Assembly (NCBI GenBank): GCA_024614665.1 | Contig: GCA_024614665.1_4861.1 | Origin: a phage | Strand: one strand, 5' to 3' | Length of the DNA: 64,000 nt | In this document: positions 48,330 to 53,191 of the stretch, one piece after another | Layout: every line of letters begins with the position of its first letter | How positions within the stretch are numbered: position 1 is the first letter of the stretch | The notes under the pieces: generated by a model | Seen by the model: only the letters and a program-made list of their open reading frames with translations | The model's database searches: none | Told to the model about the DNA's origin: nothing | Made by a program: the position numbers and the translations under genes

Positions 48330-49151
48330 TCAGCGAAGGGCGTCGGTAGTCTTACCGTGAGAGTTAACCACGTAGACTTCGTCGCCTTTATAAAACAGTT
48401 CGTACAACGCACCGGTACTGATCTGGTTATCAGGATCGTATCCAGATTCTTCTTCGATGCACATTGCGCCAATCAGTTCATCGACTGACCGGTCGCCAGG
48501 GCGAGCGCCTTTTAAAACAGTGACAACGCACTCACCATTAACCCATTGTGAGTGTTCCTGGACATCAGTGAACTCGATAGATGGACCAGGCTCTAATTTG
48601 GCTTGTTGCAGTTCTTCCTGAGTGTAGACAATAATCGCCATGTCGCTATCAGGAGACGGCTTGTACCAACCTAATTTTTCTAAGGGCGTACCGAAACCAA
48701 CGAGTTCGCCGCAGATACTATCCATGGCTTCCGGTTCACATAAATTTGTCGCCAGTACCAAGATAGCGTTGCCCTTATTATCTAGCACGTAGCTAATAAA
48801 CTCGCGTGCGTTGCAGTTAAACACCTCGACCGTTTCCAAATCGGGGATAATAAGGTTGGGGAAAAGCTGCCTCAGGTATACGTGAGCATAAAGCTGACTT
48901 GTAGACAGGCGCTGCTGCCAGCTACAATAATCAGACAAATGCATGGTGTTCGGATCAGGCACATCAGGGGCAACGCGTTTTAACCCCGGATTAAGGGCTA
49001 ACTTTTCATCACCGACAACGATGTCGAAGCGCTCGTTCTCGAGCATTTTTAATGCCTCGCGGAATACACGAGACTTACGGTCACCGATACGAACCTTTTC
49101 ATGTTCGGTAATGATACGGTCACCATCAATCACACGTTTAACTGTAAACAT
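48330..49151 (-). CDS. hypothetical protein
   Basis: ORF 48330..49523 trimmed to ATG (MFTVKR) with AAGGAAAG SD; the longer N-terminal extension is low-complexity. Confidence 0.6.
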   Translation of the reverse strand: MFTVKRVIDGDRIITEHEKVRIGDRKSRVFREALKMLENERFDIVVGDEKLALNPGLKRVAPDVPDPNTMHLSDYCSWQQRLSTSQLYAHVYLRQLFPNLIIPDLETVEVFNCNAREFISYVLDNKGNAILVLATNLCEPEAMDSICGELVGFGTPLEKLGWYKPSPDSDMAIIVYTQEELQQAKLEPGPSIEFTDVQEHSQWVNGECVVTVLKGARPGDRSVDELIGAMCIEEESGYDPDNQISTGALYELFYKGDEVYVVNSHGKTTDALR

Positions 49152-49529
49152 GTTGCTTTCCTTCTTACTACTATTGCTGCTTCTATTGGTAGTCCACGAC
49201 ATATCCCTCGTGGGTGGGTTCGGTGTGTAACCGAATAAGTTTTTCTGTTCCCAGGGCAACGCACCAGGCTTAATTGATTTAGTTGGCAAACCAGGAACAG
49301 AAAAGGGTGAACAGACCAGGGCGCGAGGTGGCTCTGTAAGGATGCGTAAGAAAAACCCAAACGGCCCTGGTCTGTAATTTGGCCCGAAGTCACCGTGTCG
49401 GAGGACAGCCCATGCAGGTAGGCGGCAATGGACACGGTGACCGCGGAAGTGGTTCGTGTTACCCTTGACCCGTGTGTGGATACGCGTCTTATTTCGAATG
49501 CCTTCGGGATAAGGATAACACAAATGGGG

Positions 49530-49605
49530 CGAGCAAACGGACGGATTCGAACCGTCGAAATATCCGATTATGAGTCGGGTGTTAATTCCTCTAACTTCGC
49601 TGCTC
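49530..49605 (-). tRNA. tRNA-like, anticodon CAU (Met or Ile2), imperfect acceptor stem
   Basis: T-arm GACGG-TTCGAAT-CCGTC, anticodon loop CTCATAA, D-arm GTTA..TAAC; acceptor pairing imperfect. Confidence 0.5.
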
Positions 49606-49606
49606 T

Positions 49607-49675
49607 TGCTTTGACCGGTCTCGAACCGGCGACCTTCCTCAAAGAGGTTGCTCTACCTACCTGAGCTACAAAGCC
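49607..49675 (-). tRNA. atypical tRNA-like element (about 69 nt), anticodon uncertain
   Basis: Acceptor GGCTTTG/CAAAGC, D-arm TAGCTCAGGTAGGTAGAGC, T-arm GCCGG-TTCGAGA-CCGGT; anticodon/variable region 3-4 nt too short. Confidence 0.4.
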
Positions 49676-50450
49676 ATTGTAAGGTGCCGGTGCATCCCGG
49701 CGTGTGTTAGTGCAGTCAGCTCCCTCGGGCCTATCTGCGGCAACACGTTGCCCGGCGCACCGACATATACCACAGTAACCTCGTAAAGTCACTCTGGTAT
49801 TGTTCGTTGCATATTACTAAGTTATCACGTAAACGATTTCACCACTTCCAATAATTAACCTAAATTCATTTCTGAATGCAGGTGATGGACTTCTTCTTCT
49901 GAGCCTGGCCATAAGGTCAGGTCTTAGCGTCTCCAAGCACCACCCGCTATCACGTACATTCGTGGCGTACCGGCCGTATGAGGTACCGCGCCTACGGTGA
50001 CACACAGTCACCCTAACACTGGGAACTCAATCCCATTTGATTATCAGATTGTGGATTTACAGGCGTAGCGTAGCGGCTTAATGGGCCGGTGCTTGCCTGT
50101 CCCCTAGGGACGGTTGTCGTGGAGACGCCAGTCTGTAAGTGGGGCCCTTACGGGAAAACCCATCGCCTGTAAACCAAACATGACTGAATACCCAGAACCG
50201 GACGTTTGAAATCAACATCCTGATGTACTGGAGTATTTCATGCATAAACGTGTCTCGTATCGAATGAGGTTATGACCGGTCAGATACCCAGCATCCTGTA
50301 CAAGCGACCTGGTGCTTTGTGTACCTGGCTGCTACGGATTTATCGGTTTACCGTAGGTCTGAGCTGCTACCGGCTCATGCGGGACATCAACCCGCACAAT
50401 CTGAGTAAGTATCATGGCTCGAATAGGGTTAGTGGGCCGAAGCCCACTGT

Positions 50451-50693
50451 TTAGCCAGCATTGAACGATTCATGAACGACGGTCCCAGCAGGATAGTGCG
50501 TAGTGCCGATAAGAGTAACGGTCAGGGTAAGCCCTTCATCCCAGCGCTCTTTCGGTAACCAGCGGCAGTCCATCCAATGACCACAGTCGGGAGGAATTGC
50601 ACACGCGGCTTGCTCCGTAGGAGCCGCCACGATTATGGAATCAAATTCATCGTACCCGATATCGTCAGTTCGTTCTAGCAAGTACAAATTCAT
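50451..50693 (-). CDS. hypothetical small protein
   Basis: 80-aa ORF with GGAGAA SD, just downstream of tRNA-Trp. Confidence 0.5.
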   Translation of the reverse strand: MNLYLLERTDDIGYDEFDSIIVAAPTEQAACAIPPDCGHWMDCRWLPKERWDEGLTLTVTLIGTTHYPAGTVVHESFNAG

Positions 50694-50757
50694 GTTGTTC
50701 TCCTACAGTTGACAAATCTGTGTCTTCTGTGTTGAACCTGAATTCGTTGGCTAAATG

Positions 50758-50834
50758 TGGCGGGGGCACGAGGTTTCGAACCTCGAACCTTCGGTTTTGG
50801 AGACCGGTGCGCTACCAATTGCGCCATACCCCCA
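50758..50834 (-). tRNA. tRNA-Trp (anticodon CCA)
   Basis: Minus-strand GGGGGTATGGCGCAATTGGTAGCGCACCGGTCTCCAAAACCGAAGGTTCGAGGTTCGAAACCTCGTGCCCCCGCCA: canonical cloverleaf, loop CTCCAAA, 3' CCA encoded. Confidence 0.85.
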
Positions 50835-50926
50835 GAATTCTTTAAACGTGTTTATACGGATGCGCTACCCCGTTATCGCAGGCGATTGATGGGGTCAAGC
50901 TTGCGTGCTTCTGACTCCCGCATGAT

Positions 50927-51418
50927 TCACCTCCGTAGTTCGTAAGTGCTAATCTCACCACCGGTGTAGATATCGCATTCGGACGCAATCTCAACAGCAC
51001 GAACCGCATTCGCGCCCATCTTCATCGCACCCAACGCGTACTCGTAACCGCTTCCGGTTGCCAGAGGTGGTGTGGCTTCACTCCACCACAACGACACGTC
51101 GTCTTCACGCTTCCCACCGACTATCGCTTTCCCTGAGGCCAGAAGCATCAGGAAAGTAAAATCCATCTTCGCAGGTAACTGCGAGCTTTGTGTTAACCCC
51201 TTGTAGCCGGGTCTCAAGCGGATAGTTTCCAGCAGGGCCAATTGTCCTGTGATGTCGCCGCTTACCCCGAACACCACAATTCGTTCACCGGTAATCCACC
51301 ACTCCTCGTCAGGAGGACAGACGAATAACTTCTGGGTATTCAGGTTGCAGATATTCGACCCACGGGTTAACTGGCCGTCAGCAGCTAAGACTTTTCCATC
51401 GAACGCTATCGTGGTCAT
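50927..51418 (-). CDS. HslV-like N-terminal-nucleophile peptidase
   Basis: MTTIAFDGK..AADGQLT..VFGVSG..TGSGYEYA..ASECDIYTGGE resembles E. coli HslV including Thr directly after initiator Met; GGAGA SD. Confidence 0.7.
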   Translation of the reverse strand: MTTIAFDGKVLAADGQLTRGSNICNLNTQKLFVCPPDEEWWITGERIVVFGVSGDITGQLALLETIRLRPGYKGLTQSSQLPAKMDFTFLMLLASGKAIVGGKREDDVSLWWSEATPPLATGSGYEYALGAMKMGANAVRAVEIASECDIYTGGEISTYELRR

Positions 51419-52388
51419 GATTTAATTCTCCGTTTGGTTTATCATACCTCACGCAGAATCTGTAAATTTTAATCAGCCAGGTACCGTCGTTTCTCAACGG
51501 GAGTACCCACCCCTCTCGTCTGTTCCGAGCCGCCAAGATTTGGACCAACCTCCTCGTCGGAGTTATCCCCCAAGTCTGCGGTTCTACACGCAGACCCCTT
51601 TTCGACGCAACGCCGAATTCGAATCAGTTTTGGCCCGACGCCAGAGCGGAATCAGCGATAACTATCGGAGGTAAGTTCAACGACGTCTCTCCGCTGCCCA
51701 GTCCTCTGGCGCTGCCACGGTCAACTCGGATTTTGTCATGGGTGCGCAGTCGACTTTCTCGACACTCTCGCAAACCGAACTACGCCCGACGTAGCACCGT
51801 CGGCAGGTCGGTTATTTACCGAGTACCTGAATGGGTGGTGATTGTCGGAATCCCCGCCGACGCTCACCGGTTCTGTTCCACGGCGAAAGTTTTCCAGAAC
51901 ATAATAAATCACGCAGTGTTAGATTGCGCTTTGTCGAAGACACCACGGTAGGTATTTTCGAAAAAGCGTCCTGGGTAACAATCCCAGGACTTGGAGCCCT
52001 AGCGTGCAGGGTTTAAAAGTGATTGGACCATTGGCGCGGTCAATCGCTATTCGCATATAACAACAAACTCACGTAATCAAAAAATTACCGGCTCGAGGCG
52101 TAGGCGTCCAGGAGCCGGTGAGTCACACAGCAGTGAGTCCCTCTGCGGGGATTTTCGTGGAGCTTGTCGTTGGAATAAAAATCCGTCCCCGGACGGGTTG
52201 GTGGTGTGGGTCGACTTGTCAGAGTCTGCCGTCCAGGGAGGCGGCCACCGAAGCTATGGGTTTTGGACATCGAGTGGTGGTCTGAACACACGATAGGGAA
52301 ACCACGTAAAAAATACACAGGGTACCCAAACCAGGACGTCTGTCCGATCACGATCTCTTAATAAGGATCACGCGCGCGCCCGCACGCG

Positions 52389-52497
52389 TTTTAAGATCTT
52401 AATATATTAATATATTTATTTATATAAATAATTATAATAATTAAATATAATACCTAAAGGTATTATTATATTTAATATTATTATATATTTTAAAAGA
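52389..52497. repeat. 109-bp almost pure AT island with internal palindromes, flanked by alternating CG tracts and ATAAGGA direct repeats
   Basis: Perfect 16-bp palindrome TTATTTATATAAATAA at 52416-52431; CG tracts 52369-52388 and 52511-52532; ATAAGGA at 52361-52367 and 52533-52539. Confidence 0.7.
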
Positions 52498-53124
52498 TCC
52501 TGGAGGATACGGGTGTGCGCACGCGCACGCGTATAAGGAAAGGGTCTTCGACCCGATCCACAGGATCGATCTAAAAAACAATCTAAGTGATTGTTTTAAA
52601 AAGAAATTTTGAGAATTAGATTAAATTATCCCCTAAGGGGGATTTTAGAGTGAGTTAAACAACCCAAAGAACTCGTAAGTAACCGACAGTGTGTGTCGGT
52701 TACAGAACGATCCAGTTTTCACCCAGACATGGCACGAAGTGCTACCCAACGTGTGATCGTCGTCGCCGGCCGCGACCGTCACCTCGGAGCCGAAACGGGA
52801 ATGGCACTCTCGCGCTCTCAACGGCCCGCTGGCGCGATTTTCCGGTAGGGGGAACCCAAGTGTACTGGGTCAGGTATAAATCTCGTTCTAGCGCTTTCTA
52901 GAGCGTTTTTAATAACTGGTTAAAAAACATACAATCCTGAATCCACATTCCCTGAATTTCCTCGCCCCGACAAAAATAAATTCTCTGTCTCGATACATAA
53001 CCCCCTCTAAAACGCACGTAACCGACCCTAGAAAACGATAAACTGCCAAAAACGAGCTACCCTACATCCAGACCACTTAATCGTTTTCTGACGTCTCCTA
53101 GACCCCCTTTAACCGGCCGGTTAA

Positions 53125-53184
53125 AAAATAATCAAAAAAAAATAAAAAAAATAAGATTGGCGTACTCCCCGAAGAGAGTACGCC
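53125..53184 (-). terminator. intrinsic terminator
   Basis: Hairpin GGCGTACTC-loop-GAGTACGCC followed on minus strand by long T-run. Confidence 0.65.
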
Positions 53185-53191
53185 TAGTGAC

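Follow-up and report, generated by a model that had tools for sequence, protein, structure and literature searches.

What does a phage gain from a gene that resembles hslV when no hslU lies beside it? The stretch of DNA analysed here (64,000 nucleotides from a phage, referred to below as the window) carries such a gene, and an earlier note, made from the sequence alone, described its product as an HslV-like proteasome-type peptidase that could partner with host HslU or act alone. The locus raises the questions whether the protein is an HslV in the family sense, whether an unfoldase is likely to serve it, and how the gene relates to the tRNA genes and the extended non-coding DNA that flank it.

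Gene model, phage and family of the peptidase

The gene, its ribosome-binding site and the codons of the putative active-site residues are located as follows.

50927..51418, minus strand: gene for a predicted PPH-family proteasome-like peptidase (163 aa, ATG start; equals SPN3US gp001)
51428..51431, minus strand: Shine-Dalgarno sequence GGAG of this gene, 9 nt 5' of the ATG, as read from the sequence
51415-51413, minus strand: catalytic equivalent Thr2
51379-51377, minus strand: catalytic equivalent Asp14
51331-51329, minus strand: catalytic equivalent Lys30
51259-51257, minus strand: catalytic equivalent Gly54
51055-51047, minus strand: Gly122-Ser123-Gly124

The open reading frame lies on the minus strand and its sequence is identical to the one quoted in the earlier note. 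On that strand the DNA upstream of the ATG reads cGGAGaattaaatcATG, which contains the GGAG (51431-51428) as well as an in-frame TAA (51424-51422) two codons 5' of the start. This stop leaves no possibility for an N-terminal extension or propeptide, so that threonine indeed follows directly upon methionine; loss of the N-terminal Thr in a corrected gene model, which the note had named as a ground for abandoning its assignment, did not occur.

Positions 50000-53000 match Seoulvirus jumbo phages at 93-99.5% in megablast (SPN3US, SaP7, SPLA3, the SPFM series and others), and by this similarity the window belongs to a Seoulvirus, i.e. an SPN3US-like Salmonella jumbo phage. The peptidase has the same sequence as its SaP7 homologue (100% identity) and shares 99.4% identity with SPN3US gp001, which is listed in RefSeq NC_027402 (ACQ60_gp001 / YP_009153295.1) with the product name 'peptidase HslV family', a label also found on several other deposited genomes; relative to SPLA5c the gene has 12 synonymous and 5 non-synonymous codon differences. 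A profile search recovered a single PPH copy in the whole SPN3US genome. SPN3US gp149 (161 aa, 'head maturation protease' in RefSeq) was considered as a second copy and rejected, as it does not match the PPH profile. Several SPFM-series records (e.g. LR535901, LR535907) align with the locus only in 25-40 short fragments, and the PPH homologues in them are split into odd 'hypothetical proteins' (P0002-P0006), which looks like a problem of sequence quality and not like biology. The finding of the peptidase as such is a rediscovery: the SPN3US orthologue is already annotated, the PPH family has been published, and HslV genes without HslU were remarked upon in 2020 for the related phage pSal-SNUABM-04 (PMC7823757).

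The protein matches PHROG 1040 ('peptidase HslV family') with an E-value of 5.5e-38, and hhalign pairs it with E. coli HslV at a probability of 97.2% (E 3.4e-11), whereas a tblastn search of the window with E. coli HslV returned nothing at E<10; the similarity to HslV thus exceeds chance at the profile level only. The blocks that had been matched by eye (MTTI, AADGQ, VFGVSG, TGSGYEYA and CDIYTGG) occupy the same columns in the hhalign alignment, and the remark that the protein is shorter in the middle agrees with a gap opposite helix H2 of HslV (residues ~67-97). A profile search that failed to place the protein in the Ntn-hydrolase/HslV family, the other outcome that would have spoken against the note, was likewise not encountered. 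The best PDB sequence-profile matches are 20S proteasome beta subunits (beta5, E 2.6e-13), and the family profile fits proteasome beta5 no worse than HslV. The score against Pfam Proteasome (PF00227) is 13.2 bits, below the gathering score of 22.4, and the NCBIfam HslV models score 16.6 bits, with cut-offs of 157.75 (TIGR03692) and 137 (NF003964). Taken together, profiles and predicted fold identify the protein as a member of the proteasome-beta/HslV superfamily.

Across 51 homologues (27-95% identity) the residues M1, T2, T3, A5, A12, D14, K30, G54, G122, G124, A128 and A141 are invariant, among which are the equivalents of proteasome Thr1, Asp17, Lys33 and Gly47 and of the GSG motif; 129 of 139 further family representatives also start with MTT. 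In the predicted structure (AF2 monomer) a single helix (56-67) connects strands 45-54 and 87-93, and the closest folds are peptidases without exception. K30 and G54 are separated by 23 residues, compared with 12-13 in most members, and the approximately 10 extra residues are predicted to form a short beta-hairpin, and not a helical lid, at the S3/S4 site, which adjoins the active site. Roughly one in four of the homologues aligned has this insertion, and two further loops are lengthened in the jumbo-phage subgroup.

The PPH family was described as comprising proteins of ~140 residues, without propeptide and without helix H2, in Caudovirales and prophages (Fuchs et al. 2021; PMC8665760). The protein studied here combines a predicted proteasome-like core, including the equivalents of the Thr1/Asp17/Lys33 triad and of the Gly47 oxyanion hole, with the absence of the second flanking helix H2 (in the AF2 secondary structure and as the hhalign gap); it shares the Met-Thr-Thr start, is short, lacks a propeptide as well as a C-terminal domain, and belongs to a group that is carried, without an associated unfoldase, by tailed phages and prophages, mainly of Proteobacteria. 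With 163 aa, as against the usual ~140-148, it stands at the long end of the family range (median 148 aa, range 137-266), the extra length being due to the loop and hairpin insertions of the jumbo-phage subgroup. On its sequence and modelled fold we assign the protein to PPH and not to HslV, an assignment made by PHROG 1040 and the defining traits of the family and not by clustering with the published representative WP_042125023.1.

Homologues were found by tblastn in 491 phage records (phages of Salmonella, Pseudomonas, Escherichia, Klebsiella, Erwinia, Vibrio, Rhizobium, Aeromonas and others), and an exhaustive profile search yielded 986 clusters (50% identity, E<=1e-30), in nearly all of which the match starts at residue 1. 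Among the matches listed, most PPH-bearing phages have genomes of ~40-50 kb. BFVD contains 42 viral proteasome-like folds, mostly named 'uncharacterized'. Our literature search retrieved no biochemical or genetic data on any PPH, and a search of the SPN3US literature other than the 2019 infection-proteomics paper retrieved nothing on gp1 expression or essentiality.

With HslV/ClpQ (MEROPS T1B) the protein has in common an N-terminal Thr after presumed Met removal, the Lys33 equivalent and the GSG motif. It differs in its score (16.6 bits versus cut-offs of 137-158), in the absence of H2, of a conserved pocket for the HslU tail and of pairwise BLAST similarity, and in that hslU is found neither in the operon nor elsewhere in the phage. 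One half of the original description stands, namely that of a phage-borne homologue of the Ntn peptidases with N-terminal Thr, and the other half has to be given up: by its scores below every curated HslV/Proteasome threshold, its missing H2 and its deleted or unconserved HslU-tail pocket, the protein is not an HslV orthologue. The 20S beta subunits (PF00227) have the same catalytic residues and provide the best PDB profile matches, but possess propeptides, helices H2 and H5 and alpha-ring partners. BPH (PDB 5ovs/5ovu; PMC5777263) is ~185 aa long, possesses the two apical helices as well as a long, acidic pore loop, and is chromosomal in bacteria, whereas PPH is phage-borne. Connectase (MJ0548; PDB 6zw0) resembles the phage protein in its proteasome-like fold, its N-terminal nucleophile and the use of the S3/S4 site for an insertion.

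Unfoldases of the phages and the HslU-binding surface

The earlier observation that no AAA+ unfoldase is encoded nearby holds for the whole window and, beyond it, for the remainder of the SPN3US genome, in neither of which an HslU-like ORF was found. BLAST with E. coli HslU as query showed nothing significant in the window, and phmmer (--max) with E. coli HslU and gp116 of Erwinia phage RAY gave nothing below E=1 among 1379 ORFs, the set of all ORFs of 60 aa or more from both sources. In two inspected PPH phages of the ~40-50-kb genome class (42 and 48 kb) no AAA+ ATPase is annotated within 5 kb of PPH.

HslU-like ATPases are nevertheless encoded by other jumbo phages, for instance at the following positions.

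Locus L006, 4353-6062: HslU-like ATPase RAY gp116
Locus L097, 301-2040: HslU-like ATPase Caitlin gp127

RAY gp116, called 'HslVU-family' and reported to be nuclear in the RAY preprint, was considered as a nuclear 'HslV-family' homologue of PPH and discarded, being in fact a 569-aa HslU-like AAA+ ATPase, so that its nuclear localisation is uninformative on PPH. Homologues of this ATPase occur in Caitlin, Machina, SPAsTU, pSal-SNUABM-04, Wellington and Kwan; in several Erwinia and Salmonella jumbo phages it measures 570-580 aa, with an N-terminus that is closely HslU-like. The 'ORF 116 HslV' of the pSal-SNUABM-04 paper (PMC7823757) may be this same ATPase, the tblastn match in that phage lying at 106144-107817 under the annotations 'putative DnaA protein' and 'hypothetical protein'. 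The ATPase genes are located ~100 kb away from PPH, and the presence of one gene is independent of the other: Caitlin and SPAsTU carry the two together, SPN3US carries PPH without the ATPase, and Kwan and Wellington have the ATPase and no PPH at the syntenic position. Moreover, the C-termini of the phage ATPases (...TLRGLDG, ...GTLVNN) are unlike the HslU docking tail (...DLSRFIL).

The C-terminal tail of HslU is held by F54, F57, A79, K80 and Q114 in Ec/Hi HslV (PMC6429459). A79 and K80 fall inside H2, which is deleted in the phage protein. F54, F57 and Q114 are replaced by Leu, Leu and Ser in columns that vary across the family, where the register of the H1 alignment is uncertain by about 3 residues. 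HslV Lys28, which we take to pair with the C-terminal carboxylate of HslU, aligns to Asn25. Because the pocket residues are deleted or variable, canonical docking of HslU appears unlikely, and of the two options left by the note, partnering with host HslU or acting alone, the former has become the weaker one.

The surrounding locus and its structured RNA

The DNA around the peptidase gene contains the following elements.

50758..50833, minus strand: tRNA-Trp (CCA), found by ARAGORN (Rfam 65.6 bits), 93 nt 3' of the PPH stop
50451..50693, minus strand: 80-aa ORF, equal to SPN3US gp264 (PHROG 5444), between tRNA-Trp and the remaining tRNA region
49532-49603 and 49606-49675, minus strand: two weak tRNA-like matches (Rfam tRNA, 38.1 and 30.6 bits)
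51419..53190, minus strand: ORF-free stretch of 1.77 kb between the gp002 terminator hairpin and PPH, without any ORF >88 aa
53159-53184: gp002 terminator hairpin
51461..51623, minus strand: conserved structured RNA element of ~160 nt with 7 predicted helices, ending 43 nt 5' of the PPH start
51538-51510, minus strand: 29-nt core of this element, UCUUGGCGGCUCGGAACAGACGAGAGGGG, invariant save one inserted base in the window

The placement of the gene in a tRNA/non-coding region, as originally stated, is evident from the tRNA-Trp and from the ORF-free stretches on both sides. The gene order reads gp003, gp002, terminator hairpin, ~1.7 kb without ORFs, PPH, tRNA-Trp, gp264, tRNA region and gp262; the order of the PPH locus is kept in SPAsTU and phiEaH2, and the tRNA-Trp neighbourhood also in metagenomic relatives. 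The gp264 product is 57% identical to its SPAsTU counterpart, and a homologue adjoins tRNA genes in every lineage examined, including the PPH-less Kwan (Kwan gp1, by eye). ARAGORN detects 7 tRNAs in the locus of SPAsTU and 12 in that of phiEaH2, whereas the window holds tRNA-Trp and two remnants; a 'tRNA-OTHER' is annotated in the SPN3US RefSeq record. A second ORF-free stretch (49150-50450), 3' of gp264, aligns with the intact tRNA array of SPAsTU/phiEaH2, and looks like a decayed tRNA cluster of which tRNA-Trp alone was kept intact.

On the other side of PPH, many sibling Seoulviruses have an extra 191-aa gene directly 5' of it (in SPLA5c at locus L014, 1918-2493; no family match), which by its ATGA stop/start overlap is predicted to be translationally coupled to PPH. 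In the window, SPN3US, SaP7 and SPLA3 this gene is missing exactly from ATG to ATG (junction at window positions 51416-51421), and PPH here consequently uses the ribosome-binding site (GGAG) of the missing gene. The second half of the 191-aa protein is weakly similar to gp264 (E 0.03-0.14), a relationship that we did not accept. This position is occupied by an unrelated 129-aa gene in SPAsTU, and in Machina and Kwan by further small genes or one for an HNH endonuclease; judged from these comparisons the site is a hot spot of gene gain and loss.

The 51419-53190 stretch matches 63 phage records, mostly without annotated feature. Compared with SPAsTU, 72.7% of the positions are identical over 1357 nt; the mismatches are spread over the codon phases as 74/66/66 and many indels are of non-3n length, whereas the adjoining PPH coding sequences of the same two phages are too diverged for blastn. 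By this pattern the stretch is conserved as non-coding DNA, of a length unusual for a phage. It holds 16 terminator-like sites (hairpin plus T-run) where 4.1 ± 1.8 are expected, shows a folding z of about -4 on both strands, and includes an AT-rich promoter-like block at about 52400-52600 with GC down to 0.30. Conserved islands are found at about 52850-52875, 52580-52625 and 52346-52543, the last of which includes the AT-rich, palindromic, promoter-like block with flanking GC hairpins.

The most conserved island is the RNA element at 51461-51623. It was aligned over ten phages of Seoulvirus, Erskinevirus, Machinavirus and Wellingtonvirus, and RNAalifold predicted seven helices with compensatory changes at 18 of the 43 pairs. 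A covariance model (R1) has a single match in the window (161.6 bits) and further ones in viral and metagenomic contigs. For the 17 distinct sequences, in an alignment that was fitted to the model, 94.4% of the cells are paired, versus 38-44% when the partners are slid; double changes occur in 26 pairs, as against 4-13 pairs after sliding; the covariation score reaches 0.458, as against at most 0.097; and 0 of 500 shuffles reach any of the observed pairing or covariation values. Conserved G-U pairs are frequent, which indicates an RNA of the PPH strand. Rfam 15 gave no match to the element even at E<=10. A 19-base pattern from the core has 59 metagenome matches, and eight loci fit the covariance model (seven at E<=1e-17 and a weak one at E 0.006, several being duplicates of each other or of viral contigs); the remaining matches, which do not fit, were dismissed as chance matches.

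In 16 of the 20 loci scanned the element ends 13-50 nt before a Shine-Dalgarno-like sequence and start codon. The first gene 3' of it is PPH in four lineages (at +43 to +49), and elsewhere a variable cassette comes first. PPH is missing 3' of the element in Kwan/L028 and in L036, both of which have same-strand tRNAs 3' of it, and at locus L029 neither PPH nor a tRNA is found within 1.7 kb 3' of it. Since the element is also present where PPH is missing but tRNAs follow, it heads the PPH/tRNA-cluster unit and not PPH alone, and we regard it as a candidate 5' leader or small RNA in that position. This arrangement recurs in four phage genera, and the element is always situated 5' of the variable cassette, PPH and the tRNA cluster, in the same orientation. 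It appears to be the sole element of the locus that has not been described before.

Proposed role, rival readings and significance

The reading that we consider probable is that of a catalytically competent threonine peptidase of the PPH family, without a phage unfoldase and probably without HslU, encoded by an accessory gene that heads the tRNA-cluster unit. It is built on the homology, the fold, the conservation of the catalytic residues, the absence of H2 and of a phage AAA+ partner, and the gene order. Methionine aminopeptidases prefer a small P1' residue, and the host enzyme would be expected to remove Met1. The exposed Thr would then act as N-terminal nucleophile, assisted, as it is in HslV and the 20S beta subunits, by an Asp/Lys pair and an oxyanion hole formed by the backbone. 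Isolated proteasome-type subunits are generally inactive, from which we infer that activity of PPH depends on assembly, presumably into rings. Such a small threonine peptidase would most likely need neither a phage unfoldase nor host HslU, and might act on peptides or on unfolded or specific proteins in the infected cell. Its gene would be accessory and not core, and, lying 3' of the putative structured RNA leader, it would probably be the first to be expressed from the unit that carries the phage tRNA cluster.

Six other phage contexts were compared and have no conserved PPH neighbour. A polynucleotide-kinase gene lies next to PPH in RcXuper and RpAliso, and weakly so in VLCpiS13a. In Rhodobacter phage RcXuper (locus L013, 3233-8726) the genes are those for RNA ligase, polynucleotide kinase, PPH, NMN adenylyltransferase/ADP-ribose pyrophosphatase, nicotinamide phosphoribosyltransferase and DNA ligase, a setting of RNA repair and NAD salvage that is suggestive of the kind associated with counter-defence. 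Aeromonas phage 4L372D has two adjoining 'peptidase HslV family' genes (locus L018, 3432-3983 and 4001-4885), coding for 183 aa and for 294 aa with a C-terminal extension like that of the published RPC group; this pair could form a hetero-oligomer.

The protein might instead form HslV-like rings that dock onto Salmonella HslU and replace or compete with host HslV, whereby ATP-dependent unfolding would supply a protease under phage control, or the phage protein would titrate host HslUV. The PPH-bearing phages found here all infect Proteobacteria, which possess HslU, and this counts against an HslU-independent enzyme. Docking of this kind is still unlikely in our estimation, given that helix H2, part of the pocket for the HslU tail (A79/K80; PMC6429459), is absent, that the other pocket columns vary across the family, and that the family profile fits proteasome beta5 at least as well as HslV. 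It is also conceivable, if rather improbable, that a minimal protease, acting alone or loaded by host HslU, removes particular host proteins, for instance defence or translation factors, early in jumbo-phage infection, with its expression and that of the tRNA cluster governed by the upstream RNA.

The other two alternatives do away with proteolysis by PPH. The specificity element of connectase sits at the S3/S4 site, and an insertion at this very site implies that the chemistry could differ from simple proteolysis: the protein could be an Ntn enzyme that carries out transpeptidation or ligation, as connectase does, or hydrolysis of small-molecule amides, in a role that could be anti-defence or related to RNA or tRNA. 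The nearest folds are all peptidases, however, the insertion is predicted as a short beta-hairpin and not as a helical lid, no partner gene is kept across contexts, and the link to tRNA genes is positional only, which together make this reading very unlikely. A catalytically dead scaffold or decoy, whose fold was kept for binding, e.g. to a regulator of a host protease, would agree with the fact that no activity is on record for any PPH and with the scores below the curated peptidase-family thresholds. Yet neither the Met-Thr start nor any member of the catalytic set varies in homologues down to 27% identity, a pattern not expected without selection on catalysis, and loss of activity therefore strikes us as extremely improbable.

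As an annotated member of a described family the peptidase gene adds no new fact, and the RNA upstream of it is worth a separate look. Proteasome-like enzymes normally act together with an unfoldase or in a large assembly. The occurrence of a partnerless version of ~150 aa in hundreds of phages raises the question what the minimal functional proteasome-like unit is, and, secondly, what it is that phages degrade or process with PPH. SPN3US, for which a genetic system is available, would be a reasonable place for the characterisation of a PPH.
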